A stretch of 50,301 nt of DNA, counting the filler, from an uncultured virus (IMG/VR IMGVR_UViG_2061766007_003888) (lineage: Duplodnaviria; Heunggongvirae; Uroviricota; Caudoviricetes). It is 5 parts of one record of this genome, joined end to end, with 100 filler letters (N's around TTAATTAATTAA, not from the genome) between each part and the next. Parts side by side here need not be neighbours in the genome. Positions count along the whole stretch, not along the records: positions 1 to 8,233 come from IMGVR_UViG_2061766007_003888; positions 8,334 to 10,271 come from IMGVR_UViG_2061766007_003888; positions 10,372 to 29,465 come from IMGVR_UViG_2061766007_003888; positions 29,566 to 42,213 come from IMGVR_UViG_2061766007_003888; positions 42,314 to 50,301 come from IMGVR_UViG_2061766007_003888. One strand, 5' to 3'. How positions within the stretch are numbered: the stretch's first letter is position 1; every line of letters starts with the position of its first letter. The translations under genes and the position numbers were made by a program. The notes under the pieces were generated by a model. That model did not search any database and was not told the DNA's origin. It worked only from the letters and a program-made list of their open reading frames with translations. Below are positions 1,921 to 50,301 of this stretch, piece by piece.

Positions 1921-2134
1921 TGCGGATTCGAAATACAATGTGAACCTGTCCATACACAAAACTTTTACAGTCATGGAAAAGAACGTGTACTTCGCTACCG
2001 ACGACGAACTTACGGACTGGTTCGACAGGCACAGTCCCGTAAAAATCATCGAGTCGTTGGCGGAACAGACCCGTAAGCTCGTTACCGAGCTTAACAACTT
2101 CGAGTCCATACTCGATTTCGAACTGAACCTGTAG
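1921..2134 (+). CDS. Hypothetical protein, paralog family C, partial C-terminus
   Basis: SPVKIIESLAEQTRKLVTELNNFESILDFELNL aligns with the C-termini of 3867 and 4307. Confidence 0.65.
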
Positions 2135-2373
2135 CTATGGGCGAGACTTGTACCGTTGCCATAAATAAGACATGAACAATATCGTAGTCAATCCCGAATC
2201 TAACCCCGAACTGGCGAAATACCTGGACAAAATCCTGTCCGGGTTCGAATCAAGCTTCGACTGTACGCGCGACAACTGNNNNNNNNNNGCTTATTACCGA
2301 GCTTAACAACTTCGAGTCCATACTCGATTTCGAACTGAACCTGNNNNNNNNNNNNNNNNNNNNNNNNNNNNNN

Positions 2374-2719
2374 CGGTCACATAAACCGCGAGTTACGTAC
2401 CTTCCTGGTACGCGAGGGCGAAATCCCCGAACTGGTAGAAGGACTTTACAGGGTCGATTCCTGGAGGGGTTGGCTCGACGAGGGCGATTTCACGGACGAG
2501 GAGCTCTCGCTTATCGAAAAACGTTACGGGGGCAACAACAGGTACAGTCTCGAACAGTACGTGGAATCGTTACCGGAACGGGAACAGGAAGAATACCTGT
2601 ACGTACCCCACCAGTTCCTGATCCTCGACGATCTGATCCTCGACGCCGCGAGTTCAATGTTCGACTGTAAGAACTCGAAGTCCAGGTACTATGACTGGGA
2701 CAAGAATCTTGTCTCCTGA
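2374..2719 (+). CDS. Hypothetical acidic protein, partial C-terminus
   Basis: Open frame HINRELRTFLVREGE...YYDWDKNLVS* read by hand. Confidence 0.6.
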
Positions 2720-2727
2720 CCCCGCGT

Positions 2728-2955
2728 TTAGCAATTGTCGTTTGTCCAGAGAAAATTAGCCGTGGCCTCGATCCATGCTTCCTGTGTCTTATATTCGTTC
2801 TCGCGAAGAAATTCCTTATGTATCGCGGTGCAGGTACAGGTAAGATCCCATCCCGGCGTTTGTAACAGGGTCTCGACGTAATCGGCCGACAAGTGTTCTT
2901 TGCGCCCGTGTTCGCCCGGGAAAATCCCTTCGAGAAGTTTCTTCCGGACTTTTTC
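2728..2955 (-). CDS. Hypothetical protein, partial C-terminus
   Basis: Open frame EKVRKELLEGIF...FLWTNDNC*, convergent with the previous gene. Confidence 0.55.
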   Translation of the reverse strand, partial: EKVRKKLLEGIFPGEHGRKEHLSADYVETLLQTPGWDLTCTCTAIHKEFLRENEYKTQEAWIEATANFLWTNDNC

Positions 2956-2965
2956 NNNNNNNNNN

Positions 2966-3380
2966 TCATTTCCGTATAGTTCATAAGTATTTTCCCGGCT
3001 GTAGGCATAATATCCTTGAATATTTTCTGGGGTGAACCCTTGTCCAGGAGCATGGTCCTGGCCTCGTCCAGGGTCAGGTACACGTGATATTCATAGTACG
3101 AGCACATGTTTGTACCCACAATACACGTGAATACCAGGGGTTTTGACTGTTCATTGCCCGGGACACGATAAGCTATTTCGAGATACAGCCCGATTCTGTA
3201 AGTATCGTCTAAGGGCTTGATCCATACGAGCCTGCTCCGTCGATCTAGTTTGTACGGATTTTTATAAGTTATTTCGCTCTTGTCAGGTTTTGAACTTGCA
3301 TGTAATTGCATATAAAATAACGATATGTCGTGCAAAGTATCGTTGGATGGAAATTGCTCTTGTTCTGTAGCTGTCATCAT
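2966..3380 (-). CDS. Strain-variant copy of 3867..4310 (partial)
   Basis: Near-identical translation. Confidence 0.75.
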
Positions 3381-3597
3381 AGCTGTTCTATCGTGAAAGT
3401 GTTCACGGTGTTGTTCATGGCAAAAATCAACTGTCTCACTGATTCATCCATCGCGTCGNNNNNNNNNNNNNNNNNNNNNNNNNNNNNNNNNNNNNNNNNN
3501 NNNNNNNNNNNGATGTAGTAAAAATCGGTTTGGTACAGTGTCCAAACGTGAATTGCAATTTTATCGGAGTTTTAATTAAGTTACCTCNNNNNNNNNN

Positions 3598-3855
3598 TTC
3601 GTTAGATATGGTATAACGGTCGTTGTAATCCCACTTGGCGGAAGTATTCATCGTATAACCGACAAGTTTTTTATACGATGATGTGTTCGTGTTCGCGACC
3701 GTACTGTCGATGGTTATGTAATCGTTCGTATTCAGGTTAGTTACGGTANNNNNNNNNNCTTTTTTATATGATGATGTGTTCGCGACCGTACTGTCGATGG
3801 TTATGTAATCGTTCGGATTCAGGTTAGGTACGGTAGTAATGTTGTTCGTAGCCAT
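3598..3855 (-). CDS. Hypothetical protein MATNNITT (fragmented; continued at 9970..10271)
   Basis: GAGGT RBS; overlapping variant fragments. Confidence 0.65.
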
Positions 3856-3866
3856 GTAATACCTCG

Positions 3867-4310
3867 TTATAACTGTTCCAGGTCAAGTATATTGTCCATT
3901 TCCGTAAAGTTCATAAGCATTTTCCCGGCTGTAGGCATAATGTCCTCGAATATTTTCTGGGGTGAACCTTTGTCCAGGAGCATGGTCCTGGCCTCGTCCA
4001 GGGTCAGATACACGTGATATTCATAGTATGAGAATGAGTTCGTACCCACAATACACGTGAATACCAGGGGTTTTAACTGTTTATTGTCCGGGACACTATA
4101 AGCTATTTCGAGATACAGCCCGATTCTGTAAGTATCGTCTAATGGCTTGATCCATACGAGCCTGCTCCGTCGGTCTAGTTTGTACGGATTTTTATAAGTT
4201 ATTTCACTCTTGTCAGGTTTTGAATTTGCATGTAATTGCATATAAAATAACGATATATCGTGCAAAGTATCGTTAGATGGAAATTGCTCTTGTTCCGTAG
4301 CTGTCATCAT
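3867..4310 (-). CDS. Hypothetical protein, family C, ends LEQL
   Basis: Complete ORF, ATGA-coupled to the upstream gene. Confidence 0.85.
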   Translation of the reverse strand: MMTATEQEQFPSNDTLHDISLFYMQLHANSKPDKSEITYKNPYKLDRRSRLVWIKPLDDTYRIGLYLEIAYSVPDNKQLKPLVFTCIVGTNSFSYYEYHVYLTLDEARTMLLDKGSPQKIFEDIMPTAGKMLMNFTEMDNILDLEQL

Positions 4311-4729
4311 AGCTGTTCTATCGTGAAAGTGTTCTCGATGTTGTTCATGGCAAAAATCAACTGTCTCACTGATTCATCCATCGCTTCAAGAATTTGTCGG
4401 GGATTGTCCCTGTTGAACTTGTCCGTAATGGCCTTGATACTGTAGTCATGAAATGTAGTAAAAATCGGTTTGGTGCAGTGTCCAAACGTGAATTGTAATT
4501 TTATCGGAGTTTTAATTAAGTTACCTCTCTTGCAAGAAAGAGTGGAGTAATAGTCATCGCCGTATGTTTTTTTCCACGCGTAACAGAATGAATGTATTGT
4601 TAAGTCAGGATTATACTTCGTACATATACGTGCGAAAAATTTCTGTATCCTGCCTTCGCTTTTCGTACACGAATCATCTATAATGATGTCATCACAATCT
4701 TCGTACATTGACAAGTCTATATCGTCCAT
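4307..4729 (-). CDS. Hypothetical protein, family C, ends IEQL
   Basis: Complete ORF; variant copy at 10372..10573. Confidence 0.85.
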   Translation of the reverse strand: MDDIDLSMYEDCDDIIIDDSCTKSEGRIQKFFARICTKYNPDLTIHSFCYAWKKTYGDDYYSTLSCKRGNLIKTPIKLQFTFGHCTKPIFTTFHDYSIKAITDKFNRDNPRQILEAMDESVRQLIFAMNNIENTFTIEQL

Positions 4730-4732
4730 GGT

Positions 4733-7449: not shown

Positions 7450-7788
7450 ATGGATATCGGCGAATGCATAAATCGGCTCGAGGGATACGGGTATACCGTG
7501 AAGGGGCGTACGTCCGACAGGCTTCTGATGGACGGGTACGGTCTACGCGTAGGCGTGATCGTGGTCGAAGGTTCGGTCGCCGGGATAGATTGCTATATGT
7601 TGAAGGACGGGGAAATCGATACGCTGCTGGGGACTACGGCCGTATATCCGTCGCTCGCCATCAGGTATAAGTGGGTCGACGGGATCAGGATGGACGATAT
7701 GTTTTCCGTGCTCGGGAAGCGGTCCGGCGCCGTTATGGAGTTCGCCAGGATGAAGACCGAGTGGTATATAGACCAGCTGGAAGGGTGA
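7450..7788 (+). CDS. Hypothetical protein, paralog family A, ends IDQLEG
   Basis: LEGYGY motif; variant copy at 7259..7431. Confidence 0.8.
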   Translation: MDIGECINRLEGYGYTVKGRTSDRLLMDGYGLRVGVIVVEGSVAGIDCYMLKDGEIDTLLGTTAVYPSLAIRYKWVDGIRMDDMFSVLGKRSGAVMEFARMKTEWYIDQLEG

Positions 7789-7795: not shown

Positions 7796-8152
7796 ATGGA
7801 TATCGGCGAATGTATGGATCGGCTCGAGGGATACGGGTACGCCGTGTCGGAACTGATGACGCGGAGGTGGCGGCGCAGGAAGGTGTATATGGACGGGCAC
7901 GGGCTGCGTATCGGGCTGTTCGTGGGCAATAATGGGGCCGTCGACACGATAGACTGCTACCTGCTGGATAACGGGAGCTTCGGCAGGCTATTGGGGTCTA
8001 CGGCCGTACATCCGGGAAGCGGTATCGGGCGCTGGTGGGTCGACGGGATCGGGATGGACGAGATGCTTTCCGTCCTGTCGGAGCCGGGGAAGGCCGTCAT
8101 GTGGTTCGGGACGATGAAGGCGGAAGAGGATCTGGGCGTACTGGAAGGGTAA
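7796..8152 (+). CDS. Hypothetical protein, family A (tandem paralog of 7450)
   Basis: Shares MDIGEC..RLEGYGY, IDCY and WVDGI. Confidence 0.8.
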   Translation: MDIGECMDRLEGYGYAVSELMTRRWRRRKVYMDGHGLRIGLFVGNNGAVDTIDCYLLDNGSFGRLLGSTAVHPGSGIGRWWVDGIGMDEMLSVLSEPGKAVMWFGTMKAEEDLGVLEG

Positions 8153-8277
8153 GCGATATGATAGGCGAAAACGACATAGATATGCTGCGGCTGTATCTGG
8201 CGCGCTTCGGCATGGAAGACCCGTGGAATCCGANNNNNNNNNNNNNNNNNNNNNNNNNNNNNNNNNNNNNNNNNNNN

Positions 8278-8289
8278 TTAATTAATTAA
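8278..8289. other. Artificial scaffold linker (six-frame stop TTAATTAATTAA in N runs)
   Basis: Identical 12-mer between N runs here and at 10316, 29510 and 42258. Confidence 0.95.
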
Positions 8290-8383
8290 NNNNNNNNNNN
8301 NNNNNNNNNNNNNNNNNNNNNNNNNNNNNNNNNGAGTTCCCGCGAGACACGGATGTAATTCTGGTCTAGTTCTTCTTTCTTGT

Positions 8384-8780
8384 TCACGGGAGTTCCTCTA
8401 TGACTTTCGCGTTCATCATGTTCTCCAGCCTCATCCGCAGAGTATTCGCTGGACCTCGGACTACCCGTATGAAGTCCTCGAACGGTATGTTGGCATACTT
8501 GAATAGGGCATTGGATCCGGTCGACGCGAGTGCGTCGATTGGGTGCCCAGTCGACGCGATATAATGGAATAGGGAAGCGGGTCCTATGTCCGTGTCGGTC
8601 AGATCGAGACGGTACACCCGGTGGCCCTCGTAATATACCGTCACGCACATGTTCCCCGACGTGTACTGCCTGGCAAAGCCCTGNNNNNNNNNNACCCTGG
8701 TACATCCTTGTCGACGGTGACGCCTTGTACCCGTATTTGCGGAGTTCTCTGTCGACATATTTCAGCGAATATGTGTACAT
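8384..8780 (-). CDS. Hypothetical protein, family A, ends IEELP (gap inside; variant at 47244..47507)
   Basis: ELRKYGY...RMRLENMMNAKVIEELP. Confidence 0.75.
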
Positions 8781-8781
8781 G

Positions 8782-9054
8782 TTAGTCCAGTGCCTCCAGT
8801 GTGTCGAGGACTTTCTGGTTGTGCAGGACGGTCTCGAACGTCCTTTCGTCTTTCTTGATCCTGGTGTAGTTGTACGGTATTCCGTCGATATTTATACAGC
8901 TTTCCGGGTATCTGTCCCACAGGTGGACTAAGACGTAAAGCCCACCGGACATGAAGCTGACTGCATAACCCGACCACGGCGGCATGCAGCGCTCGAACTC
9001 GACATTGGTCACGTCGCGGAAATACTTTTTCGAATCCTGATCGTATATAATCAT
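8782..9054 (-). CDS. Hypothetical protein, ends LEALD
   Basis: 90 aa, ATGA-coupled; variant at 9181..9297. Confidence 0.8.
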   Translation of the reverse strand: MIIYDQDSKKYFRDVTNVEFERCMPPWSGYAVSFMSGGLYVLVHLWDRYPESCINIDGIPYNYTRIKKDERTFETVLHNQKVLDTLEALD

Positions 9055-9293
9055 TCTAGCGTCTCCAGCGCCTTCCTGTTCACCTCGTTTTCCAGTCTCA
9101 TCACTATACCGCTCGGCGGCCCCAGGATTATTTGTATGAAGTCCTCGAGCTCGAGCGACTTGCCGGAGTANNNNNNNNNNGTGCCCGCCGGACATGAAGC
9201 TGACCGCATAGCCCGACCACGGCGGCACGCAGCGCTCGAACTCGACGTTGGTCACGTCGTGGTAATACTTTTTCGAATCCTGATCGTATATAA

Positions 9294-9671
9294 TCATTCC
9301 AGTGTCTCCAGCGCCTTCCTGTTCGTCTCGTTTTCCAGCCTCATCACTATACCGCTCGGCGGACCCAGGATTATTTGTATGAAGTCCTCGAGCTCGAGCG
9401 ACTTGCCGGAGTACCTGAATATTTCGTTGTTACTGGACGTCGCGACATAGCGTTGGAGGGGCTTTCCGAGGTCGTCTTCGTCGAAGTCGAGAATGTCGAT
9501 GCTTTCAATTATGGGCCCGAGCGCCGTTTCCTCGTAACATACGTGTATGTGCATGTTCCCGGCACTGTACAGCCTGATGAAGCGAGCTCGGCCCATGCGG
9601 TTCGGCGGGTACGCGACGTAACCGTATTTTCGGAGTTCCTTATCGAGATATTTCATCGAGTACATGGGCAT
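9294..9671 (-). CDS. Hypothetical protein, family A, ends LETLE
   Basis: ELRKYGY, YVATS and RLENETNRKALETLE. Confidence 0.85.
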   Translation of the reverse strand: MPMYSMKYLDKELRKYGYVAYPPNRMGRARFIRLYSAGNMHIHVCYEETALGPIIESIDILDFDEDDLGKPLQRYVATSSNNEIFRYSGKSLELEDFIQIILGPPSGIVMRLENETNRKALETLE

Positions 9672-9672: not shown

Positions 9673-9819
9673 TTATTCCAGCGCCTCCAGCATGGTTTCT
9701 AGTTCCTGCCGGTCCCGTTCCATCTTCTCCTCCAGGAGCTTCCTGTATATGGGGCTCGCTACATATTTCTTCCTGAGCCGTTCCATTTCGGCGAACAGGC
9801 CTTCCGGGCTGGCGTGTCC
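9673..9819 (-). CDS. C-terminus of the family B protein begun at 48525 (ends LEALE)
   Basis: GHASPEGLFAEMERLR overlaps 48843-48892. Confidence 0.7.
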   Translation of the reverse strand, partial: GHASPEGLFAEMERLRKKYVASPIYRKLLEEKMERDRQELETMLEALE

Positions 9820-10315
9820 NNNNNNNNNNACGTGGTTTCTAGTTCCCGTCGGTCCCGTTCCATCTTCTCCTCCAGGAGTTTCCTGTATATGGGGCTCGCG
9901 ACGTATTTTTTCCTGAGCCGTTCCATTTCGGCGAACAGGCCTTCCGGGCTGGCGTGTCCNNNNNNNNNNCGGACAGGTTCACGTTGTATTTCGAATCCGC
10001 GCTGGAAGGTGTACCCTTCAGCCTGATCTGCAGTGAATACCCCATTATGTTCCTGGACCAGATAAGGCCCGAGGCGTAATTCGGGTAATCGCCCCCGTAT
10101 TTATCGTGGAGCTCGTTCAACAGGTCGTTAGATATGGTATAACGGTCGTTGTAATCCCACTTGGCGGCGGTATTCGACGCGTAAGTCGATATGACTTTTT
10201 TATACGATGCAGCGTTCGAGCCCGTACTGTCGATGGTTATGTAATCGTTCGTATTCAGGTTAGTTACGGTANNNNNNNNNNNNNNNNNNNNNNNNNNNNN
10301 NNNNNNNNNNNNNNN

Positions 10316-10327
10316 TTAATTAATTAA
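10316..10327. other. Artificial scaffold linker
   Basis: TTAATTAATTAA between N runs. Confidence 0.95.
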
Positions 10328-11201
10328 NNNNNNNNNNNNNNNNNNNNNNNNNNNNNNNNNNNNNNNNNNNNTCTTGCAGGAAAGAGTGGAGTAATAGTCA
10401 TCGCTGTACGTTTTTTTCCACGCGTAACAGAATGAATGTATTGTTAAGTCAGGATTATACTTCGTACATATACGCGCGAAAAATTTCTGTATCCTGCCTT
10501 CGCTTTTCGTACACGAATCATCCGTAATGATGTCGTCGCAATCTTCGTACATTGACAAATCTATATCGTCCATGGTTTAAACCCTTATNNNNNNNNNNNN
10601 NNNNNNNNNNNNNNNNNNNNNNNNNNNNNNNNNNNNNNNNNNNNNNNNNNNNNNNNNNNNNNNNNNNNNNNNNNNNNNNNNNNNNNNNNNNNNNNNNNNN
10701 NNNNNNNNNNNNNNNNNNNNNNNNNNNNNNNNNNNNNNNNNNNNNNNNNNNNNNNNNNNNNNNNNNNNNNNNNNNNNNNNNNNNNNNNNNNNNNNNNNNN
10801 NNNNNNNNNNNNNNNNNNNNNNNNNNNNNNNNNGCCGAGTCTCTTCGCCAGGTAGAAACCGAAAGCTGCGTTATAGGCCAGGTTCACGATTCTCCACCTT
10901 TCGCCGGTGAGGTCGTTGCAACGATCCTGTTCGCGAAAGCCNNNNNNNNNNNNNNNNNNNNNNNNNNNNNNNNNNNNNNNNNNNNNNNNNNNNNNNNNNN
11001 NNNNNNNNNNNNNNNNNNNNNNNNNNNNNNNNNNNNNNNNNNNNNNNNNNNNNNNNNNNNNNNNNNNNNNNNNNNNNNNNNNNNNNNNNNNNTGAATTCC
11101 TCGTCGTCCGTTATACCGTAGAAATCAAAATATTTCGTGACCTTTGCGTCCATAACCCCGAATATAACTAATTCGCGGCAATCCGTAAACCCCTACGGAC
11201 G

Positions 11202-22282: not shown

Positions 22283-22363
22283 GTTGACCTCTCTTGTTTT
22301 TATATAATATAGAAAAATGAACTAGTCTTTTAAACTAGTTCAATTTGAGTTTTTTCGACAGAT

Positions 22364-26090: not shown

Positions 26091-26441
26091 TTAACTTAGT
26101 GCATCTATCGCCCTCATCGTTTCCCTGTTCTTCATTTCCAGGTACGTATCCGTGAACTTCTTGCCCGTATCGCGGATAAACTGCTCTATCTCGTCCTGTG
26201 ACATTTCCTCTTCGGCAATGTAATTAACCGCCTTGCCGTCGCTGTTCAACCAGCCATCGCTGTCGATATACGCATTTTCGAAAAAGTCGTCGTCGTATTT
26301 GAGCAACGTTCCCTTACCGTAGACGGTAGGCCTCCATGCGGAATTCGCGTAAACGTATCCCGTAAAATCCCTAGTCGGCATTTCGAGTATTCCCTCGTCC
26401 ACGAGCTTGACAAGGGTATCTCTGTCGACCTTGACTTTCAT
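26091..26441 (-). CDS. Hypothetical protein, ends IDALS
   Basis: ATGA-coupled start MKVKVDRD. Confidence 0.75.
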   Translation of the reverse strand: MKVKVDRDTLVKLVDEGILEMPTRDFTGYVYANSAWRPTVYGKGTLLKYDDDFFENAYIDSDGWLNSDGKAVNYIAEEEMSQDEIEQFIRDTGKKFTDTYLEMKNRETMRAIDALS

Positions 26442-26831: not shown

Positions 26832-27416
26832 TTATCCCAGAGCACCGTCAATCGTACGTTCCAGGCCGTCGTTCCGCAACTGCAGCGTATGCTGGTTGAT
26901 TTTCTGCTCGATTTCCTTGTAGAATTCCGGCATGTTCGACTTCTTTGTGTAACGACTAATCAGTTCTGCTTCGAAATCGCGCCTGAATTGTCCGGACGTA
27001 AAGTATTCCACGTTGTCGATGATTTTGGGAATATTATATACAGAGTCGCTTCCTATACGCGTAATGGGTTTCCCGTCTATTGTTTTGCCGGAATAGACAT
27101 CAACATCCCGTAACGTAGTATATTCGCTTCCGGTCAATTCAATCGCTATATATTCATTTATTCCTTCATTCTCTACCATGTTGACGCGGACGCTGCCGAC
27201 TCTATAGCCGAACGCGTTACGGATTTCTAAATGTACGGTGTTGAACTCCCCGCATGTTTTCCAGATTTTGAAATACCGGGAATACAGGTCCGTCGCCAGT
27301 TCTACCATGTATTTCAGGAAAGACGCTTCGCACGACTTCTTGGCGTCGGTGCATTTCTTGGCGTAGCTTAATGTTTTCTTAATCTCTTTTTCGAATCCGG
27401 TAGGCTTAATGGACAT
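26832..27416 (-). CDS. Hypothetical protein
   Basis: Promoter cassette. Confidence 0.85.
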   Translation of the reverse strand: MSIKPTGFEKEIKKTLSYAKKCTDAKKSCEASFLKYMVELATDLYSRYFKIWKTCGEFNTVHLEIRNAFGYRVGSVRVNMVENEGINEYIAIELTGSEYTTLRDVDVYSGKTIDGKPITRIGSDSVYNIPKIIDNVEYFTSGQFRRDFEAELISRYTKKSNMPEFYKEIEQKINQHTLQLRNDGLERTIDGALG

Positions 27417-27486: not shown

Positions 27487-27819
27487 TCAATCCAGTTCGC
27501 CTATGCAAGCGACCGGCTTGATGTAGTCAAGGACGCGTTCGATCCAGGGCTTGACCACCTTGCGGAGGTATTTCTCCCCGGGCCGTTCCTTGATGACCAG
27601 CTGTTTCATGACCTTGTTCCTGTCGTCGTGCAACGAGATAATCTGCCTGCAATTGGCCCCGTCGTAAATTCCCTGGTTTTGACGACGGTAATGCGAAGGG
27701 AAACCCAGGTATTTTTCCTTGTCCGACCAGTCCATTTCGAGGTGCAGGTGGAAATCCCTGTCGCTGCCTGACCATACTTCCTCGACCTTGATGGAGTCGA
27801 CGATGGGCCAGGCGAGGTG
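27487..27819 (-). CDS. C-terminal part of the protein whose N-terminus is at 37523..37812
   Basis: HLAWPIVDSIKVEEVWSG..DKEKYLGFP shared. Confidence 0.7.
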   Translation of the reverse strand, partial: HLAWPIVDSIKVEEVWSGSDRDFHLHLEMDWSDKEKYLGFPSHYRRQNQGIYDGANCRQIISLHDDRNKVMKQLVIKERPGEKYLRKVVKPWIERVLDYIKPVACIGELD

Positions 27820-34559: not shown

Positions 34560-34616
34560 TTCGTTAAGCCCGTTACCGGATTTTCTATATTAAGAATATC
34601 AACAAGAGAGGTTAAT

Positions 34617-38469: not shown

Positions 38470-38744
38470 TTATTTCAGGTTGTCTATCGCGGTGACGGTC
38501 TTCGCGTACTCGTTGAACGTTTTAACCTGTTCGCCTATGGTGATTAATGCTTTTATGCCGGAATTCGCCGGTAAGACAAATTCCTTCATCTTCCGCCCGG
38601 AATCATAGAACGTAATCCGTTGGTCCACGTTTCGCGGCGTACATATCTGTATTGTCGGGACACATTTCTTTTTCAAGTTGATATGTCCTTCGTTCAGTAC
38701 CCTGCTGAACGCCATCGATATATGCTCTATGTCGCAAACATTGG
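38470..38744 (-). CDS. Allele of the MITLK protein C-terminus, ends IDNLK
   Basis: Near-identical to 39583..39864. Confidence 0.75.
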
Positions 38745-38965: not shown

Positions 38966-39529
38966 TTACAGTTGATCAATAGCCTTTAACGTTTCTTCAT
39001 GTTCCTTGATAAGGATAACCTTCGTATTGCCCTTAATAGTCCTTCCATAAATATTCATGTCTTCGAGGTATACATAGGCATGGTCACAGATAACGGAATG
39101 GACAATAGGACCCGATATATGGTCATCATTTCCACTATCGATATTACATCCAATACCATGGCCTTCGACATGTGCATCGCCAAAGATTTCCGACCTGGCT
39201 ACATCTACACCGCTGACGTATGCATTGCCATAAATCTTCGCCGCAGTAAAAATATCCGACTCGTTATCGATGACCGCGTTTCCATAAACCCTGGCCGAGA
39301 TACGAACCCGGCTTTCACCTTTTATCTTTGCATTACCGGTTACTCTGGCATTGTTTTCGATAGTTGAACCGGGATAGACCCAGCAGGTTCCTCGGTGAGA
39401 CAGATTCTTTTCGTTATAGATATATCCGCCAAGGTCGCCCGCCTTTACATCGTCAAAGTCCTTGAGCGCACGAATCTCGTGCAAGCCATCAGTTGTAAGT
39501 GTCTTTCCAGTAAATTCGTATTTTTTCAT
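38966..39529 (-). CDS. Left-handed beta-helix (hexapeptide repeat) phage protein, leaderless, ends IDQL
   Basis: IRALKDF.DVKAGDLGG.I..E.NLS...CWVY then NARVTG/ARVYGNA repeats. Confidence 0.85.
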   Translation of the reverse strand: MKKYEFTGKTLTTDGLHEIRALKDFDDVKAGDLGGYIYNEKNLSHRGTCWVYPGSTIENNARVTGNAKIKGESRVRISARVYGNAVIDNESDIFTAAKIYGNAYVSGVDVARSEIFGDAHVEGHGIGCNIDSGNDDHISGPIVHSVICDHAYVYLEDMNIYGRTIKGNTKVILIKEHEETLKAIDQL

Positions 39530-41236: not shown

Positions 41237-41539
41237 TTACTCCAGCCGGTCAAGTACGAGTTCCGTACCCATGTTTACCAGGGTTATCTCGGGCCTGTCG
41301 GAATCGAATACCGCCTCGATCCTCCGGGCTATTTTCGAGTTTCTCGGGATCTTGAAGCTCCATAGCCTTTCTACGCCTTTCCAGCAAGTGAGTATCGGCG
41401 GATGCTTCCTGGACTTGTCCCTGAAATAGGCGGCGCAGTCCAGTCCGACAGTCATGCCCTTGTCCGCGAGCGTACGGTTCATCAGGTCGAGCTTACGGGC
41501 GAACTCGTCGAGCCACATGTCGTACTCGGTACATGACAT
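41237..41539 (-). CDS. Hypothetical protein, ends LDRLE
   Basis: Operonic ORF. Confidence 0.75.
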   Translation of the reverse strand: MSCTEYDMWLDEFARKLDLMNRTLADKGMTVGLDCAAYFRDKSRKHPPILTCWKGVERLWSFKIPRNSKIARRIEAVFDSDRPEITLVNMGTELVLDRLE

Positions 41540-41544: not shown

Positions 41545-41742
41545 TTACCCCACGAGGTTCCCGATGTTACCGACGATCCAGGTGGCGCCGTGTGCGATGT
41601 TGGACACGATTCCCGTGGCGAGCGCCACGATGGAATTCACCGACCCGCAGAAGGAGTTGGTCACGTGGCTGTTGGTAGTGAAAGCCCCGATGAGGAACAG
41701 AACGACCACTACGACGATGATGACTTTGATTTTTGTATCCAT
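41545..41742 (-). CDS. Small membrane protein
   Basis: N-terminal TM segment; promoter cassette. Confidence 0.75.
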   Translation of the reverse strand: MDTKIKVIIVVVVVLFLIGAFTTNSHVTNSFCGSVNSIVALATGIVSNIAHGATWIVGNIGNLVG

Positions 41743-42213: not shown

Positions 42214-42257
42214 NNNNNNNNNNNNNNNNNNNNNNNNNNNNNNNNNNNNNNNNNNNN

Positions 42258-42269
42258 TTAATTAATTAA
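42258..42269. other. Artificial scaffold linker
   Basis: TTAATTAATTAA between N runs. Confidence 0.95.
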
Positions 42270-42313
42270 NNNNNNNNNNNNNNNNNNNNNNNNNNNNNNN
42301 NNNNNNNNNNNNN

Positions 42314-42510
42314 CCGCCGATTGCGTATATGTATACCTGATACGCGACAAGTGGCTGGTAGCGTGTACCGAGGCCGGGCGCGGGCTGAACAGCGATAACC
42401 CGCACAGGATTATCGTACTCGATTTCGACGGGCTGATGCGCCTGCTCAGGGGCGGCGAGATGGCGTACAACAACATGGAGAACGAGCTCGTACTGGAGGA
42501 ACTGCGATGA
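42314..42510 (+). CDS. Family A fragment, ends NELVLEELR
   Basis: WLVACTE..FDGLMRLL. Confidence 0.6.
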
Positions 42511-42576: not shown

Positions 42577-42835
42577 AAGCCCGCGCGAATGGTATTCGAT
42601 AAACGGCCTGGAAATATCTATCGAAGCCGAACGCGGCAGCGGTGCCGGTGCCGTATTTGTCTACCTGACGCGCGACCAGTGGCTGGTGGCGTGTACCGAA
42701 TTCGTGTGCAGCTCGAACGATAACCCGCACGAGGTTATTATAATCAATTTCGACAGGCTGATGCGTTTAATCAAGGGAGGCGAGATGGCGTATATCAATA
42801 TCGTGAACGAGCTCGTCCTGGAGGAACTGCGATGA
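42577..42835 (+). CDS. Family A fragment, ends NELVLEELR
   Basis: Paralog of the previous fragment; ATGA-coupled to 42832. Confidence 0.6.
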
Positions 42836-43179
42836 ACGATGTCCCTGTCATGTACGAGCAGGTCGATCGGCAGCTGCGCCATTACGGGTGGGCGTACAGG
42901 TTCACCGGGTATACAGACGATTCGCACGACTATGCGAGGGACGGGTATGCCGTTATCGTATTCGTGAATCCCACCGGCCGGGAAGTACGCAATATGTCGC
43001 TGGTCAACGAGTGTGAGAACACGGCTAACTATTATATCATGACGACCGACGAAAAAAGCGGGCTGTTCGATACGAAGGTACCGTACCTGGCGTTCATGGA
43101 TACTGTGTGCGGCGAAAGCAACAGAATGTCCATGCGTATCGAGAACGTGAAAAACCTGATGGCGCTGGAAGGGCTGTAA
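42832..43179 (+). CDS. Family A protein, ends LEGL
   Basis: LRHYGW..YARDGY..RIENVKNLMALEGL. Confidence 0.8.
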   Translation: MNDVPVMYEQVDRQLRHYGWAYRFTGYTDDSHDYARDGYAVIVFVNPTGREVRNMSLVNECENTANYYIMTTDEKSGLFDTKVPYLAFMDTVCGESNRMSMRIENVKNLMALEGL

Positions 43180-43494
43180 TGTTCGTAATGTCAAACTACA
43201 ACTTCGAGTTATGGAAACGGCTGGACAGGGAAGTCACCGGGGCCGGGTTCAGCCAGGATACAGAGGTCGGTACGGCCTATTCGACATGGCACCCGGGCCA
43301 GCGATACGCGAAGGGAGGGTTTTTCCTGGCAATCGACATGGAAGGAATCAATTACGACGGGGCGGTAGCGCTGTGGGACTGTGAAGGCCGCGAGGTATGT
43401 TCCGCGGTGGTCTCGCGGGGTTCCGGCAAGATACTGCCCCTGAAGAAGATAATCCCGCTTGACAGGTTCATGCACGTCATATCGATGCCGCCGG
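43179..43494 (+). CDS. Family A protein, partial (tail ending LEEL at 45532..45717)
   Basis: TAATG coupling; overlapping fragments. Confidence 0.7.
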
Positions 43495-43504
43495 NNNNNN
43501 NNNN

Positions 43505-43867
43505 TACGGTTTCGGTTTCCCAATTCGCGAGTACGGTATATACGTTACGCGGTTCTCCCTTGATTATTTCCGTTATTATTTCCGTCGTTATTCCTGAATA
43601 TCTATTGGTATTGCAACCTTCCTTCGATGTCGCCAAATAACGGCCATCGAGCTGGTCAGTCGAAAAGTTGTCGTCTATTATGTTGACATGTGTCACTGTC
43701 GTATCAGACATTCCAGTTTCGAGTTTATCGTAATACACGTATAACCACAAATTTTCCTTGATGAACAGCGTATATGACTTGCGATCGCGCAGGTCTTGGA
43801 ATTTGCTTTGTTCCCAGCCGTTTTCCGTCAACAGTTTTTTCACTTGCGACAATGTCCCGATATGCAT
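43505..43867 (-). CDS. Family A protein, partial
   Basis: LTENGW..FIKENL..YLATS. Confidence 0.75.
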
Positions 43868-43984: not shown

Positions 43985-44377
43985 ATGAGACATGATAGAC
44001 ACCCGGAACTACTGTCATTGATGAATTTACAGTCAAGGTTCGAACGCCTGGCCGCGAAGATGTACGGCGTCAATAAGAGCGATACTGTTAACTTCTACAG
44101 CTTGATCCAGGTGGACGGCCCGCTTATCGTGTCGCTCGGCGTACCCCATCCGGAACATGGATATTACGACTGCTGGGCAATCGAGTGCGTCGTCGATGAC
44201 GAAGATGGAATATTCAGATTACGCCTACAGAATTCACCGAAAAGATATTTCCCGTGCCCACAAGAACCGGAAGACGTCCTGAAGGAAATGGAAAAATACC
44301 GCCAGAACTTCCTGCATAAAGGCTACCGCAACATGATCAATAACATGAATGAAAAAATACTGGACGTACTGGACTGA
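43985..44377 (+). CDS. Family B protein, leaderless, ends LDVLD
   Basis: YG..CW..MEKYRQNFLHKGY. Confidence 0.85.
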   Translation: MRHDRHPELLSLMNLQSRFERLAAKMYGVNKSDTVNFYSLIQVDGPLIVSLGVPHPEHGYYDCWAIECVVDDEDGIFRLRLQNSPKRYFPCPQEPEDVLKEMEKYRQNFLHKGYRNMINNMNEKILDVLD

Positions 44378-44386: not shown

Positions 44387-44812
44387 ATGAAAGACAAGTT
44401 GGAAAGACTCGAGAAACGATGCATGAAGGAAATCGACCGGCTTTACGGCAATACCGACCTATATTACTACGAGGTATTTATTACGCCGAACCCCAATGAC
44501 AGATTCCTGATAATAAAGTTCGCCGTCATAGATCCGGAAAACCCAAAATACCTGTGCTGGCAAGCCAGGGCGGAAGTACGTCTGTCGAAGAGAGGGAACG
44601 TCATATACGCGACGAGGATACCGTCGAACGAAAAGCCCGCATACAGGAAAGACGGTACCTTCGACGACGGCGTACGGTATATCGACCACCCGGCGAATCT
44701 GAAGCAGACACTGGAAAAACTCGAAAGCTATAGGCAGCACTATCTCCGTACTGGCTACAGGATGCTCCTGAACGAGAATATCGAACAGGCGCTTGATTAC
44801 CTACCCGGCTAG
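44387..44812 (+). CDS. Family B protein, ends LDYLPG
   Basis: YG..CW..LESYRQHYLRTGY. Confidence 0.85.
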   Translation: MKDKLERLEKRCMKEIDRLYGNTDLYYYEVFITPNPNDRFLIIKFAVIDPENPKYLCWQARAEVRLSKRGNVIYATRIPSNEKPAYRKDGTFDDGVRYIDHPANLKQTLEKLESYRQHYLRTGYRMLLNENIEQALDYLPG

Positions 44813-44823: not shown

Positions 44824-45519
44824 TTACAGTGCGTCTAAAGCCTGTTCTATTACGGTATTCGAGACCATAGCGCGGACATTGACCATGTCGCCGAGAACTA
44901 TCCTTACGGCGTTCCCGATGGATATGCCCGTACCCAGGTACCGGTTNNNNNNNNNNNNNNNNNNNNNNNNNNNNNNNNNNNNNNNNNNNNNNNNNNNNNN
45001 NNNNNNNGTAATTCACGTAAAGCAACATATGGCCGTTCTTGTATACCCGATAATATTCGGGATAGTTCGATTTATCCGACTCCCACCCGTGCCTTAAGAG
45101 CATGCCTTCCAGGCACGCGAGCGAATACCTGTCGTATTCCCAGANNNNNNNNNNATAATTCACGTAAAGCAACATATGACCGTTCTTGTATACCCGATAA
45201 TATTCGGGATAGTTCGATTTATCCACCTCCCACCCGTGCCCTAAGAGCATGCCTTCCAGGCACGCGAGCGAATACCTGTCGTATTCCCAGANNNNNNNNN
45301 NCGCGTCTAAAGCCTGTTCTATTACGGTATTCGAGACCATGGCGCGGACATTGGCCATGTCGCCGAGGACTATCCTTACGGCGTTCCCGATGGATATGCC
45401 CGTACCCAGGTACCGGTTTTTATCTTCAGGAGTATTATTGGTCGTCATGACGCAACGGCTGTCGTTCCAGTAACGGGTATCGTTGAGGTACAAGCTCGTC
45501 ACGTCGCCGTCCCTCATGT
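44824..45519 (-). CDS. Family A protein in fragments (start MKNFWEY at 49997 +), ends LDAL
   Basis: LLGHGW..YKNGHM; overlapping variant pieces. Confidence 0.6.
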
Positions 45520-45713
45520 CNNNNNNNNNNCGCGCTGTGGGACTGTGAAGGCCACGAAGTATGTTCCGCGGTTGTCTCGCGGGGTTCCGGCAAGATACTG
45601 CCCCTGACGAAGATAATCCCGCTTGACAGGTTCATGCACGTCATATCGATGCCGCCGGAAAAGATATCCATGGCGGCGGAGAACTGCCTGAACGAGATGG
45701 CACTGGAAGAACT

Positions 45714-46079
45714 ATGATACTGTCAGAGATTTACGACACGCTGGCCGATAACGGGTGGAAATGTACAACAAGTGAACCAGATACGCCGCTGTATATACCG
45801 AAAGTATTTGTAAAAGAACATTTCTATATCGTCGTAACAGTTTTTATGCTTGCGGACATGGGCATACGACTCGTGATGTACGACGGAGATATTTCTACTA
45901 AAACGGCATACCTGCTGGCGACAGCCAGCAACGAGAATGTCCCGGATAGTCTTAAGTTATATAAAGAAAATAAAGAAATACCGTTTGAGAAATTTATATC
46001 GCTTATCAGCGAGGATATTTCACAAATACCGATAGCGGCCGGTAACTATGTAACGGAGAAACTGCTGGAGACACTATGA
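45714..46079 (+). CDS. Family A protein, ends LETL
   Basis: LADNGW..FVKEHF..LLATAS; ATGA coupling. Confidence 0.85.
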   Translation: MILSEIYDTLADNGWKCTTSEPDTPLYIPKVFVKEHFYIVVTVFMLADMGIRLVMYDGDISTKTAYLLATASNENVPDSLKLYKENKEIPFEKFISLISEDISQIPIAAGNYVTEKLLETL

Positions 46080-46420
46080 CGGATTATTTCGGTATAATAA
46101 CTAAATATTTTGACGACAAGCTGGAATACAGGAACGGTTTCTCGAGCCGGTATCTTATTTGCGATACGGTTGTCCTGTGGGATTCCTACCATAAGAATAT
46201 GTGTATCGGAGCCGCTTGTAATTCATATTGGGGTTTTGTTTACAAAGCTCCTTACGCCAGACTATATATCGTGTCGGACAAGCTAGAGCCGGAGGATCTT
46301 GACCCGAGCAAATCTCTGACTATATATATGGACGATATTTGCAAGGCTATCGCTGCCGGCGGCATTACCGGGCTGTCCGCACTGTATGACGTATTGTACA
46401 TGGAGAAGACGCTCCAATGA
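46076..46420 (+). CDS. Hypothetical protein
   Basis: ATGA coupling at both ends. Confidence 0.75.
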   Translation: MTDYFGIITKYFDDKLEYRNGFSSRYLICDTVVLWDSYHKNMCIGAACNSYWGFVYKAPYARLYIVSDKLEPEDLDPSKSLTIYMDDICKAIAAGGITGLSALYDVLYMEKTLQ

Positions 46421-46791
46421 TTCCGTTACTTGCGTACAGGGTAGATTCGGTCTACGACGAGCTGATGCGTTACGGATGGGCACTGATGGACGCGCAGCGG
46501 GCCGGTACGCAGGCAGGGATGGGATTAGAATACTTGTTCAGCGGCGGCGGATTCGATATCTCATTAGTGCAGGCAGATACAGGCAAGTATTTTATTAGGA
46601 TATATAACTATCCGGAAACCATACATTGTCGCCGTATAATAGCGGTTTCGGATACAGTTCCTTCTCATCCATGGGCGGCGATTTTACGGATTTCGACCGG
46701 CGACATGATTAGGTTGCTGTACGGGGACCCGTTGACTTTCGGGTTGCGGCTGGAACAGTATAAGGTTGAGACAGCGCTGGATGAATTATAA
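46417..46791 (+). CDS. Family A protein, ends LDEL
   Basis: LMRYGW..RLEQYKVETALDEL. Confidence 0.8.
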   Translation: MIPLLAYRVDSVYDELMRYGWALMDAQRAGTQAGMGLEYLFSGGGFDISLVQADTGKYFIRIYNYPETIHCRRIIAVSDTVPSHPWAAILRISTGDMIRLLYGDPLTFGLRLEQYKVETALDEL

Positions 46792-46842: not shown

Positions 46843-47247
46843 TTATTCCAGCGCCCCCAGTATTTCCCGCAGTTCCGTTTTCCTGCTTTTCGCGTACAGT
46901 CGCCTGACGCAGCGCTGCCTGAGCTCTTCGGCGCGGTCTAGCAGTTCGTACAGCGAGTCGAATCTTTCGATACCGCGGGTTTTCGCCTCGGAGGACGTGT
47001 TGGTCACGACTCGGAGCTCGTGTGGTTTACGGTCACCATCATAGATTTTCAGGGTCGCCGACCAGCATATGTTATTATGGTTGTCGAACGTCTGTATCCA
47101 TGCGGAAGCGTAGTCGTAGTTCGTCCAGTGTTCGACATGGTACGTGAAATTGTCAAACTGGCACCACCGTGTCAGTTTTTTACTGCGTTCCGCAAGTTCT
47201 CGCGAGACACGGATGTAATTCTTGTCTAGTTCTTCTTTTTTATTCAC
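46843..47247 (-). CDS. Family B-like protein (GTG start), ends LGALE
   Basis: ICW..ELLDRAEELRQ; GTGA coupling. Confidence 0.75.
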   Translation of the reverse strand: MNKKEELDKNYIRVSRELAERSKKLTRWCQFDNFTYHVEHWTNYDYASAWIQTFDNHNNICWSATLKIYDGDRKPHELRVVTNTSSEAKTRGIERFDSLYELLDRAEELRQRCVRRLYAKSRKTELREILGALE

Positions 47248-48137
47248 GGAAGTTCCTCTATGACTTTCGCGTTCATCATGTTCTCCAGCCTCATCCGCAG
47301 AGTGTTCGCGGGACCTCGGACTACCCGTACGAAGTCCTCGAACGGCATGTTGGTGTACCTGAACACTTCGTTGTTACAGGTCGTCGCGACATAGTGAAAT
47401 AGGGAAGCGGGTCCTATGTCCGTGTCGGTCAGGTCGAGACGGAACACCCGGTGGCCCTCGTAGTATACCGTCACGCACATGTTCCCCGACGTGTACTGCC
47501 TGGCAAANNNNNNNNNNNNNNNNNNNNNNNNNNNNNNNNNNNNNNNNNNNNNNNNNNNNNNNNNNNNNNNNNNNNNNNNNNNNNNNNNNNNNNNNNNNNN
47601 NNNNNNNNNNNNNNNNNNNNNNNNNNNNNNNNNNNNNNNNNNNNNNNNNNNNNNNNNNNNNNNNNNNNNNNNNNNNNNNNNNNNNNNNNNNNNNNNNNNN
47701 NNNNNNNNNNNNNNNNNNNNNNNNNNNNNNNNNNNNNNNNNNNNNNNNNNNNNNNNNNNNNNNNNNNNNNNNNNNNNNNNNNNNNNNNNNNNNNNNNNNN
47801 NNNNNNNNNNNNNNNNNNNNNNNNNNNNNNNNNNNNNNNNNNNNNNNNNNNNNNNNNNNNNNNNNNNNNNNNNNNNNNNNNNNNNNNNNNNNNNNNNNNN
47901 NNNNNNNNNNNNNNNNNNNNNNNNNNNNNNNNNNNNNNNNNNNNNNNNNNNNNNNNNNNNNNNNNNNNNNNNNNNNNNNNNNNNNNNNNNNNNNNNNNNN
48001 NNNNNNNNNNNNNNNNNNNNNNNNNNNNNNNNNNNNNNNNNNNNNNNNNNNNNNNNNNNNNNNNNNNNNNNNNNNNNNNNNNNNNNNNNNNNNNNNNNNN
48101 NNNNNNNNNNNNNNNNNNNNNNNNNNNNNNNNNNNNN

Positions 48138-48525
48138 TGTGAGAGCCGACACGATCGCCGGGTACATGTACGGCGGGGATTTCGACAATCCGCTGCACAC
48201 CTACTCGTCGTACTTCGCAGCGTACAATAACTATATAGTGGTGCGTATCGGCGTCGACGATCCCGTACGGGAAAACATGTTCTGCTGGACCGTGATCGGG
48301 GAGATCCACCTCGAGGGCGTGCCCAGGTACTTCGTGAGGCTCCCGCAGTCCGAGCGCTCCGGATGGGTTAACGGCAAGTACGACAACGGCGTGAGGGAAC
48401 TGCCGTGCCCGCAGGACGTCGCTGGCATGCTGGAGACCATGGAAACATACAGGAAGGAGTTCCTCCGTACGGGCTACATGGAAATCGTCAACAGGGAAAA
48501 CATGAAGATACTGGAGGCGCTGTAA
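48138..48525 (+). CDS. Family B protein, partial (N-terminus at 50068..50284 -), ends LEAL
   Basis: YGG..CWTVIG..METYRKEFLRTGY. Confidence 0.8.
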
Positions 48526-48892
48526 TGTGGCAGTACTCGAAACTGGAAGGTGTCAGGGACGAGCTCCGCCAGCTGGCGAAGTCCGCGTACGGCGACTTCG
48601 GCGGAGACATGAACACGTTCGCGACGGTCGTGTCGCACTATCCCATAAGGCCCCGGGTCAAGGCCGAGCTCGCGGTAATCCACCCGTCGGACACGAGGAT
48701 GAACTGCTACGTCGTGATCGGCGAGGCGTACTTCGACGACGGCGAGTCGGAACCCAGATACGCGGTCAGGCAGATGTACTTCGCAGGCGGGACATACCCG
48801 CTGAAATCGGATGACATAGTCCGGACAGAACCGGTACCGCTGGGACACGCCAGCCCGGAAGGCCTGTTCGCCGAAATGGAACGGCTCAGGAA
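48525..48892 (+). CDS. Family B protein, partial
   Basis: TAATG coupling; AYG..HP..CYVVIG. Confidence 0.75.
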
Positions 48893-49185
48893 NNNNNNNN
48901 NNTGCGCTGATCACGTTCAGCAGCCTCATGTAGTCGCCACGCAGGTATTCCCGCCTGTACGCCTCCATCTTGTCGACCATCTCCAACGCCGACGATACAT
49001 CAACTGAACCGACGAGGGTGTTACCCCATACGTGGTACTTCGGTGACATGTCCGGGTTCAGCGACACCTGCCCGACCGTACGGTACACAGCGTACCCTAC
49101 CACCGGGTGCATGACGGATATGACGTACGTCATGGCGGGGTCGAGGTCCCAGCCGGAATCGTACGACTCGTAGACNNNNNNNNNN

Positions 49186-49590
49186 CGCGCTGATCACGTT
49201 CAGCAGCCTCATGTAGTCGCCGCGCAGGTATTCCCGCCTGTACGCCTCCATCTTGTCGACCATCTCCGACGCCGACGATACGTCAACTGAACCGGCGAGG
49301 GTGTTGCCCCATACGTGGTACTTCGGTGACATGTCCGGGTTCAGCGACACCTGCCCGACTATACGGTACACAGCGTACCCTACCACCGGGTGCATGACGG
49401 ATATAACATACGTCATGGCGGGGTCGAGGTCCCAGCCGGAATCGTACGACTCGTAGACGCAGGTAGTATCGCCGAGGACGTTTTTGTACTTGGCGGTAAT
49501 CTGGTCGTCGATTTCCTTTATGTACTTGCGGAGACTGAGGCGCAGTACCCTCGGATCCCGTGGCTGGATTTGCTGTATTTCCTTGGACAT
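49186..49590 (-). CDS. Family B protein, leaderless, partial (variant at 48903..49175)
   Basis: MEAYRREYLRGDY. Confidence 0.75.
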
Positions 49591-49597
49591 ATACGCG

Positions 49598-49659
49598 AAT
49601 ATAGCAAAATTCCCCAGTTCCGTAAACGGGTTGACGAATCTGGTGTTTTATTCTATATT
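49598..49659. promoter_or_regulatory. Divergent promoter pair, inverted paralog of 43916..43977
   Basis: 19-bp identical core at 49618..49636. Confidence 0.75.
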
Positions 49660-49667
49660 CCGGTAAT

Positions 49668-50000
49668 ATGGCGAAGAAGAGAGTATATACGGCAGAATAC
49701 GTTAAAAATGTCCTTACCAGGGCCGGTTGGAAATATGCATCCCGTATCTATGTCAGGGACGGGTACGGGATCAGCTACCATTGCGTTTCCGGACAGGTAA
49801 CTGCGCTGACCATGTATACGACCGACCGGTGGGTGGCCACGACGATGGCAGGTTTCAAAGACTCGACCTCGATGAAGTTTGACCATTACGGGATACCCGT
49901 AGGCGTGATGCTCGACGCGGCCTGTTCCGGCGGCAACGGGCAGATGGAAATAAAAATCGCCAATTATTCGAACATGCGCACCCTGGAGTCGCTAGGATGA
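49668..50000 (+). CDS. Family A protein, leaderless, ends LESLG
   Basis: LTRAGW..YVRDGY..WVATT. Confidence 0.8.
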   Translation: MAKKRVYTAEYVKNVLTRAGWKYASRIYVRDGYGISYHCVSGQVTALTMYTTDRWVATTMAGFKDSTSMKFDHYGIPVGVMLDAACSGGNGQMEIKIANYSNMRTLESLG

Positions 50001-50067
50001 AGAATTTCTGGGAATACGACAGGTATTCGCTCGCGTGCCTGGAAGGCATGCTCTTANNNNNNNNNNA

Positions 50068-50284
50068 GCCCGCCCTCGAGGTGAATCTCCCCGATCACGG
50101 TCCAGCAGAGCATGTTTTCCCGTACTGGATCGTTGACGCCGATACGCACCCCTATATAGTTATTGTACATTGAGAAGTACGACGAGTAGCTGTGCAGCGG
50201 ATTGTCGAAATCCCCGCCGTATATGTACCCGGCGATCGTGTCGGCTCTCATGGCTTCCTTCTCGAGGATGTCGCGCCCCGTCAT
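50068..50284 (-). CDS. Family B protein N-terminus (allele of 48138)
   Basis: ATGA-coupled to an upstream gene ending ALEVLE. Confidence 0.7.
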
Positions 50285-50301
50285 TCCAGTACCTCCAGCG
50301 C

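Follow-up and report, generated by a model that had tools for sequence, protein, structure and literature searches.

A conserved C-terminal motif in a rare family of small phage proteins, and its overlap with downstream ribosome-binding sites

The window analysed here, by which we mean the whole stretch of 50,301 bases (4,632 of them N) from the uncultured Caudoviricetes virus IMGVR_UViG_2061766007_003888, encodes a series of small proteins that end in a common motif, [LIV][DE]xL followed by up to two residues, and most of these carriers belong to an undescribed and rare phage protein family. Four artificial six-frame-stop linkers (N44-TTAATTAATTAA-N44, Table 1) reveal the window to be made up of five or more contigs strung together artificially, and besides these linkers there are approximately 55 blocks of 10 N and nine larger masked stretches, with many genes being cut. 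At some of the 10-N blocks, for instance at 8782-9297, two versions of a single gene that differ slightly are placed head to tail; the scaffolds seem to string strain variants together, and what looks like a tandem duplicate on either side of such a block may have been produced by the assembly. Near-identical genes are also present on several contigs (the 8384 and 47244 regions, 4307-4729 and 10316-10573, and 819-1766 and 41237-41539), and copy counts per genome are thus inflated. A DNA similarity search against 50,697 phage records gave no match for the window, a Pfam scan of 116 window open reading frames (ORFs) gave sub-threshold matches with none above the curated cut-off, and in a PHROG scan of 88 ORFs the few matches were to families of unknown function only, with none for the alpha/beta carriers of the motif. 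The window therefore represents uncharacterised phage DNA consisting of small genes, and no structural genes were found in it.

Enrichment of the motif was assessed in 652 stop-to-stop frames from the window (of 40 codons or more, and free of X over the final 8 residues). The pattern [LIV][DE].L.{0,2} was present at the C-terminus of 29 of these frames, versus 3.97 predicted from its internal rate and a mean of 2.9 (standard deviation 1.7, maximum 13) in 2,000 draws of pseudo-C-termini, and it was found in 1 of 147 frames of an unrelated phage locus (L001) that served as control. The C-terminal enrichment is real, both over internal windows and over another phage. Four of the 29 frames are near-identical duplicates (the pairs 3377/4307, 9051/9294, 8384/47244 and 38470/39583), leaving 25 distinct carriers, in agreement with the initial annotation, which had proposed at least 25; some of the carriers are incomplete, being interrupted by 10-N blocks. 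About 7 of the 25 display the short four-residue motif only (9673, 28717, 37085, 38470/39583, 38966, 40796 and the register-ambiguous 8782), and these may partly have arisen by chance. The C-termini listed in the initial annotation were all recovered at their stop codons, including LEVLE at 50281, which is a six-codon fragment at the window edge, as were the Gly variants at 8152, 27487 and 46843 and a gap in the distribution, with no match between 9673 and 26091. A BLAST clustering of the stop-to-stop frames was set aside, since most of its matches joined alternative frames of duplicated contigs.

The motif is the end of a longer C-terminal unit of 17 residues, h-x-h-x-N-x2-[NT]-x2-h-h-[DE]-x-L. 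With tails aligned on the last Leu as position 0 (17 correctly registered tails out of 18 seed tails counted by eye), Asn is present at -10 in 14/17 seed tails, while position -7, which lies four residues before the motif and where an Asn had already been pointed out, is Asn in 10/17 and Thr in 4/17; the seed tails have hydrophobic residues at -14, -12, -4 and -3, and an acid at -2. A position-matrix scan of all frames (47,447 positions) placed every strong match within 0-2 residues of a C-terminus and none internally, and the best match in the whole window that was neither a seed nor a duplicate was the C-terminus of a beta-solenoid protein. When projected on a helical wheel, positions 0, -3, -4, -7, -10, -11 and -14 fall inside a 120-degree arc, with the acid at -2 outside it. 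In the Gly variants (LGVLEG, LGALE and IGELD, and IGELG in an outside relative) the acid returns at -1 or +1, and 17 of the 22 proteins checked have a net negative charge.

The carriers fall into several families, designated A to H. Family A proteins (approximately 110-125 amino acids, aa) have an N-terminal helix ending in G-[YW] and a tail of the form M-R-h-E-N...A-L-E-x-L. A word-based search recovered only 11 close relatives, and a HMMER profile run exhaustively against 1.84 billion representatives yielded only 28 clusters (50% identity, E<=1e-3) of 72-136 aa, in all of which, but for one broken sequence, the profile match reaches the protein's own C-terminus with the same tail. In 26 of these outside sequences no other stretch of 17 columns is as well conserved as the tail (2.1 bits, versus 1.5 for the remainder). 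A hidden Markov model (HMM) made from the 26 outside sequences with the tail removed still recognised 12 window ORFs or fragments at E<1e-4. Profile comparison with hhalign linked A to family C (stops at 42510 and 42835) over 75 columns (probability 72%, E 3.3e-5), and by sequence family C is a remote relative of A; the match of A with B and B' (44377, 44812, 48525 and 46843) was confined to the last 34 columns (probability 54%, E 1.2e-4). There was no link between A and F (8782; probability 1.7%), B and C shared nothing past the tail (22 columns, probability 3.6%), and the body-only HMM detected no body similarity to A in families D1, D2, E, G and H, which are single genes or pairs. The initial annotation had described the carriers as three apparently unrelated paralog families as well as singletons; the three families are instead largely one superfamily, as judged from the body-only matches, the A-C alignment and the element order of the A and B models described below. 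Diverged copies are linked past the motif, by the body-only HMM and between A and C, and lie in tandem, as in a lineage-specific paralog expansion. A search of viral contigs returned only L001, a spurious locus, and nothing for families C and F or for a 267-aa gene, and a search of genome contigs gave no related locus; a further alignment, A2, was too variable for locus searching. The family was not found described in a keyword literature search, which is no proof of its being unpublished.

AlphaFold2 models were obtained for one protein each of families A and B. The family A model (alignment of 11 sequences) has a predicted local distance difference test (pLDDT) score of 86 and a predicted template modelling (TM) score of 0.82, and consists of a helix at residues 8-17, five strands, and helices at 85-92 and 96-114, with the tail making up the whole last helix. 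The family B model (pLDDT 77, predicted TM-score 0.73) has a helix at residues 2-19, five strands, and a single helix of 33 residues at 105-137. The order of elements is identical in both, helix, five strands, helix, and on these models A and B probably share a fold. Foldseek gave no match in the PDB at E<=1e-3 for either model, a search of BFVD returned weak matches to uncharacterised actinophage proteins only (TM<=0.52), and in the ESM Atlas scores remained below 0.9, with structural rows near TM 0.5 and no family above the bar. A wide VIA-align comparison with 48,161 chains gave Z-scores of 3.4-4.8 for A and 4.8-7.5 for B, all below 8, the common range of the tool; the entries common to A and B (7emf_Q, 4h62_Q, 7zhm_D, 3nct_A, 4jpd_A, 9vz0_I, 4l9c_A and 6w1s_I) and the types of match (Med17 C-domain, TriTu immunity protein, PsiB and CyaY/frataxin) are two-layer sandwiches with terminal helices, a fold from which no known function follows.

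A short version of the tail is also found on a protein with a different body, the beta-solenoid protein encoded at 38966-39529, whose body matches phrog_5070/7964 (E 1e-37) and, weakly, the YdcK repeat. Four close relatives, with identities as low as 54% across the C-terminal 68 residues, keep the solenoid tail (...E-T-[LM]-x-A-I-[DE]-x-L), while three more distant phage homologues (Acidovorax AP1, Streptococcus CHPC919 and ctn9Y15) have a different C-terminal domain without it. A second case is provided by gene P0040 on an outside metagenome contig (L002; 5,524 bp, without N), a family B gene 79% identical to 44387-44812 in which the 16 C-terminal residues and the DNA downstream come from family A. 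Reading frame and register are both kept across the joint, with a Tyr at -15 in both tails. DNA similarity between the two tails is low at this point, which makes a repeat-driven assembly artefact unlikely; a family B body with a foreign tail is thus seen to persist in nature. Finally, a tail-only HMM constructed from outside sequences gave 18 weak matches outside family A in the window, L002 and a further outside contig (L003), of which 13 stop no more than 5 residues short of the end of their ORF, against an expectation of approximately one. Taken together, the C-terminal HMM matches, the solenoid and the swap point to a real but partial portability, the tail appearing somewhat mobile and not entirely inherited. 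The earlier view that the tail reaches past one family holds in that it sits on the solenoid and has been exchanged between two families, but the carriers are mostly related.

The carrier genes are tightly arrayed. On L002, 11 of the 13 genes in 5.5 kb have the tail or a variant (nine found by regular expression, the family F and B' variants by eye) and are packed end to end, and stop codons in the arrays often overlap the next start (ATGA, GTGA or TAATG). A 114-aa gene inside the array (46076-46420 on the plus strand of the window; 2231-2575 on the minus strand of L002) lacks a canonical tail, ends in LYDVLYMEKTLQ and is coupled on both sides. The L-E-x codons, CTG GAG G.., place GGAG(G) 6-8 nucleotides (nt) before the downstream start, a use of the Glu codon as the next gene's ribosome-binding site that had been overlooked in the initial annotation. 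The comparison covered 27 distinct tails (window, L002 and L003 combined), a downstream start being called tight if it lay within +4 nt of the stop: of the tails with Glu at -2, 12 had a tight downstream start and 3 did not, whereas of those with Asp none had and 12 did not (Fisher p = 3.7e-5). Codons -3 to -1 also provide the Shine-Dalgarno sequence for the gene that overlaps downstream, which explains the choice between Glu and Asp at -2. Genes that are not coupled keep Asp at -2 and the full motif, and the Leu at position 0 is encoded by five synonymous codons (CTG, CTA, TTA, CTT and CTC). In translationally coupled operons the ribosome-binding site can be located in the 3′ end of the upstream gene. 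The arrangement seen here resembles such embedded sites in having GGAG(G) within the last four codons and overlapping start and stop codons, and differs from them in that the site coincides with a conserved motif of the encoded protein, of which it decides only Glu versus Asp; our keyword literature search found no paper devoted to a bias in C-terminal amino acids caused by such embedded sites. The phage plainly uses strong GAGG-type ribosome-binding sites, as a ribosome-binding cassette, GAGAGGTYAAYATG, occurs seven times in the window, before seven genes, versus 0.13 expected. This cassette is nearly fixed, and when the upstream frame is read through it gives '..REVNM'.

The reading of these data that we favour, and to which we would give about an even chance, is that the motif is the conserved end of a C-terminal helix in a fast-diverging accessory family, with the helix probably serving as a shared contact surface. 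The proteins, of 80-150 aa and mostly acidic, are predicted to start with a helix, followed by an antiparallel sheet of five strands and by one or two helices at the C-terminal end, and their genes lie in tight, translationally coupled tandem arrays, from which they would be produced together. Their bodies have diverged past sequence recognition while the last 17 residues are held, including three polar positions, and the constant helix face would contact a common partner or other paralogs instead of merely packing; recombination within the arrays could move the tail, as in the chimera of a B body and an A tail, or in a short version on the solenoid. That bodies vary while the Asn, Asn/Thr and acid face stays constant across families suggests a shared contact over packing alone. 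The motif and its position, the family relations, the models, the swap and the dual coding are observations; that the face binds something is our inference. Two other roles for the tail were considered: a C-terminal degron or PDZ-type ligand is unlikely, as 0-2 variable residues follow the last Leu, and an amphipathic membrane anchor is unlikely, as the tail is acidic.

Several points weigh against a contact surface. The tail of the family A model has a pLDDT of 88-90, which would fit a helix packed on its own domain, that is, plain structural conservation, while the family B model derives from an alignment of 8 sequences only and its tail falls to a pLDDT of 54-71. With the family A tail HMM the solenoid tail reaches no more than 3.4 bits, so that these two tails are only possibly akin, and the swap of a family A tail onto a family B body is a single event. 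Sequence comparison demonstrates a single superfamily for A, A' and C, suggests it for B, and gives no link to A for D1, D2, E, F, G and H. No partner was found, and no clamp, portal or protease hub was recognised among the 116 window ORFs by Pfam.

The strongest competitor, which we consider doubtful but deserving of serious attention, is a purely inherited structural helix, according to which the strong carriers are all diverged paralogs, the tail is conserved only because it caps and packs the fold, and the solenoid and short-motif cases are due to chance. The shared element order of A and B, the homology of A and C over 75 columns, the high pLDDT of the family A tail and the low score of the solenoid tail all agree with it. 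What it does not readily accommodate is that the polar residues (Asn at -10, Asn/Thr at -7 and the acid at -2) keep their identity while the bodies diverge past recognition, that the acid returns at a neighbouring position in the Gly variants, that in the family B model the tail prolongs a helix of 33 residues at decreasing confidence, as though it projected from the domain, that a family B body tolerates a foreign tail, and that the solenoid tail is itself conserved among relatives. A single fold common to all carriers was among the outcomes that, according to the initial annotation, would refute its proposal; the kinship of A, B and C comes close to this, but the body of the solenoid carrier differs.

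That proposal, a docking or sorting tag, appears less probable again, and we regard it as unlikely. It holds that the 17-residue helix is an independent, portable address label which plugs a recombining library of unrelated domains (sandwiches, the solenoid and others) into one receptor, such as the capsid interior for co-injection or a hub of the host, the clamp or a protease adaptor, with tails being exchanged in register by recombination inside the arrays. The solenoid body with its three tailless homologues, the natural in-register swap, the 13/18 non-A tail-HMM matches at C-termini and the missing body similarity of F, D, E, G and H to A would all be expected of such a tag. On the other hand, most carriers are one superfamily, the tail in the models is continuous with the last helix of the domain and not attached by a flexible linker, and the 0-2 variable residues after the last Leu mean that a free C-terminus is not recognised. 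The common docking hub required by the tag (clamp, portal or protease) was not identified in the window, where none of the 116 ORFs has a Pfam match above the cut-off.

It is very improbable that the motif is a by-product at the nucleotide level, imposed by the downstream Shine-Dalgarno site and start codon. The 12/15 Glu tails with a tight downstream start and GGAG(G) at the right distance fit such an origin, as do the strong GAGG-type sites of the phage, including the cassette. However, the twelve distinct Asp tails (GAY codons, no Shine-Dalgarno sequence) keep the extended motif without coupling, conservation reaches 30-40 nt further upstream than any Shine-Dalgarno site, the conserved Leu is maintained by synonymous codons, and distant relatives from other samples keep the motif. 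The protein motif is therefore no by-product of the site, and this explanation is largely refuted as sole cause; in line with the initial annotation, the tail is a common C-terminal element, and it is under protein-level selection and reaches past one recognisable sequence family.

The initial annotation had also drawn an analogy with bacteriophage T4, in which gp55, gp33 and gp43 have short, hydrophobic-acidic and interchangeable C-terminal epitopes that bind the sliding clamp, each attached via a divergent and probably unstructured linker, as described in PMC2988020. The analogy is accurate as background, and the tails studied here resemble the T4 epitopes in being short hydrophobic-acidic C-terminal elements on several different proteins, with one swap to set beside the interchangeability in T4, but the flexible linker has no counterpart here. 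That the tails are themselves clamp-binding peptides of this type is so improbable as to be set aside, as the tail forms the conserved last part of a helix that is predicted to be uninterrupted, the preceding 13 residues also being conserved, the 25 carriers are small proteins without function assigned by Pfam or PHROG and not polymerases or sigma-like factors, and the Pfam scan of the 116 window ORFs contained no clamp gene.

The closest known kind of system is the lineage-specific multigene family of large phages, with which the carriers share diverged, small, acidic paralogs in arrays with one conserved helix, and from which they differ by having the tail also on a beta-solenoid and swapped between families. 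The capsid targeting sequence of the T4 internal proteins is N-terminal and cleaved, and the cargo-loading peptides of encapsulins are extended and not helical. Like these, the tail is a short terminal peptide common to variable small proteins in hyperplastic loci; unlike these, it is a C-terminal helix, with nothing linking it to a shell.

Some other genes in the window deserve mention. A 253-aa ORF (30792-31550, plus strand) starts with the first 56 residues of the 81-aa family E protein (38473-38715 and 39586-39828, minus strand) and continues, after a masked stretch, with a different C-terminal part without the tail, which may represent module shuffling or a scaffold join. A 65-aa protein with a Gly/Ile/Asn-rich end, HGATWIVGNIGNLVG, is encoded on three contigs adjoining family G (41545-41742, minus strand, with copies at 55-813, plus strand, and 10585-10887, minus strand) and may be a small membrane protein. 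The motif-free region at 11.5-25.6 kb contains paralogous pairs of small genes (12147-12428 and 13728-14015; 12943-13308 and 14025-14390; 19914-20066 and 20120-20317; 21735-21920 and 21995-22282), the third of which ends in NLELELIDV. Finally, 36505-36849 (plus strand) encodes a 114-aa Lys/Ala/Glu-rich protein with a hydrophobic N-terminus and sub-threshold Pfam matches to SpoIIIAH-like proteins and apolipoprotein repeats.

Table 1. Carriers of the C-terminal motif, contig linkers and ribosome-binding cassettes in the window
Feature	Position	Strand	Remarks
Contig linkers, N44-TTAATTAATTAA-N44	8234-8333, 10272-10371, 29466-29565, 42214-42313		Artificial six-frame-stop linkers
Family D2 gene, 147 aa, ends NILDLEQL	3867..4310	-	
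Family D1 gene, 140 aa, ends NTFTIEQL	4307..4729	-	Stop overlaps next start (ATGA); near-identical fragment ending 3377; 5′ copy at 10316-10573
Family A gene, 112 aa, ends YIDQLEG	7450..7788	+	
Family A gene, 118 aa, Gly variant DLGVLEG	7796..8152	+	
Family A gene, ends NAKVIEELP	8384..8758	-	5′ part cut by 10-N block; near-identical 3′ fragment at 47244-47507; stop overlaps GTG start of downstream B' gene
Family F gene, 90 aa, ends HNQKVLDTLEALD	8782..9054	-	No body similarity to A detected
Family A gene, 125 aa, ends NRKALETLE	9294..9671	-	Duplicate 3′ fragment ends 9051
Short ORF, 37 aa, ends MLEALE	9673..9786	-	Short motif only
Family H gene, 116 aa, ends NRETMRAIDALS	26091..26441	-	Tail HMM 11.0 bits at C-terminus
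194-aa gene, ends TIDGALG	26832..27416	-	Weak Gly-type variant, membership uncertain
82-aa gene, ends ACIGELD	27487..27735	-	Weak Gly-type variant, membership uncertain
Family E gene, 81 aa, ends TAIDNLK	38470..38715	-	Near-identical copy at 39583-39828
Beta-solenoid protein, 187 aa, ends EETLKAIDQL	38966..39529	-	phrog_5070/7964; weak Pfam YdcK repeat
Family G gene, 100 aa, ends NMGTELVLDRLE	41237..41539	-	Masked copy at 819-1766
Family C gene fragment, ends NELVLEELR	42316..42510	+	
Family C gene, ends NELVLEELR	42578..42835	+	5′ end cut by 10-N block; stop overlaps next start
Family A gene, 115 aa, ends NLMALEGL	42832..43179	+	Modelled protein, pLDDT 86, terminal helix 96-114
Family A copy	43507..43855	-	C-terminus lost in 10-N block 43495-43504; found by body-only HMM
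Family B gene, 118 aa, ends NEKILDVLD	44021..44377	+	
Family B gene, 141 aa, ends NENIEQALDYLPG	44387..44812	+	Modelled protein, pLDDT 77, one helix 105-137
3′ fragment, ends NTVIEQALDAL	44824..44946	-	
Family A' gene 3′ fragment, ends NEMALEEL	45487..45717	+	5′ part 43179-43494; full-length form L002 2575-2946
Family A gene, 121 aa, ends TEKLLETL	45714..46079	+	
Family A gene, 124 aa, ends VETALDEL	46417..46791	+	
Family B' gene, 134 aa, Gly variant LREILGALE	46843..47247	-	
Family B gene, ends NMKILEAL	48138..48525	+	5′ part masked
Family A gene, 110 aa, ends NMRTLESLG	49668..50000	+	
Last six codons of edge-cut gene, ALEVLE	50281..50301	-	Stop overlaps next start (ATGA)
GAGAGGTYAAYATG sites	20315-20328, 22280-22293, 22700-22713, 23385-23398, 24350-24363, 27414-27427	-	
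GAGAGGTYAAYATG site	34606-34619	+	

These results document an undescribed, rare phage protein family with a confident predicted model, and a natural, in-register exchange of tails between paralog families. The dual coding provides a clean case in which the ribosome-binding site of a following gene settles one codon position (Glu or Asp) of a conserved protein motif. Should the helix prove to be a common contact surface, the family would illustrate, compactly and in nature, how the accessory arsenal of a phage can combine one constant handle with many variable heads, and the tail would itself offer a handle for pulling down the partner.

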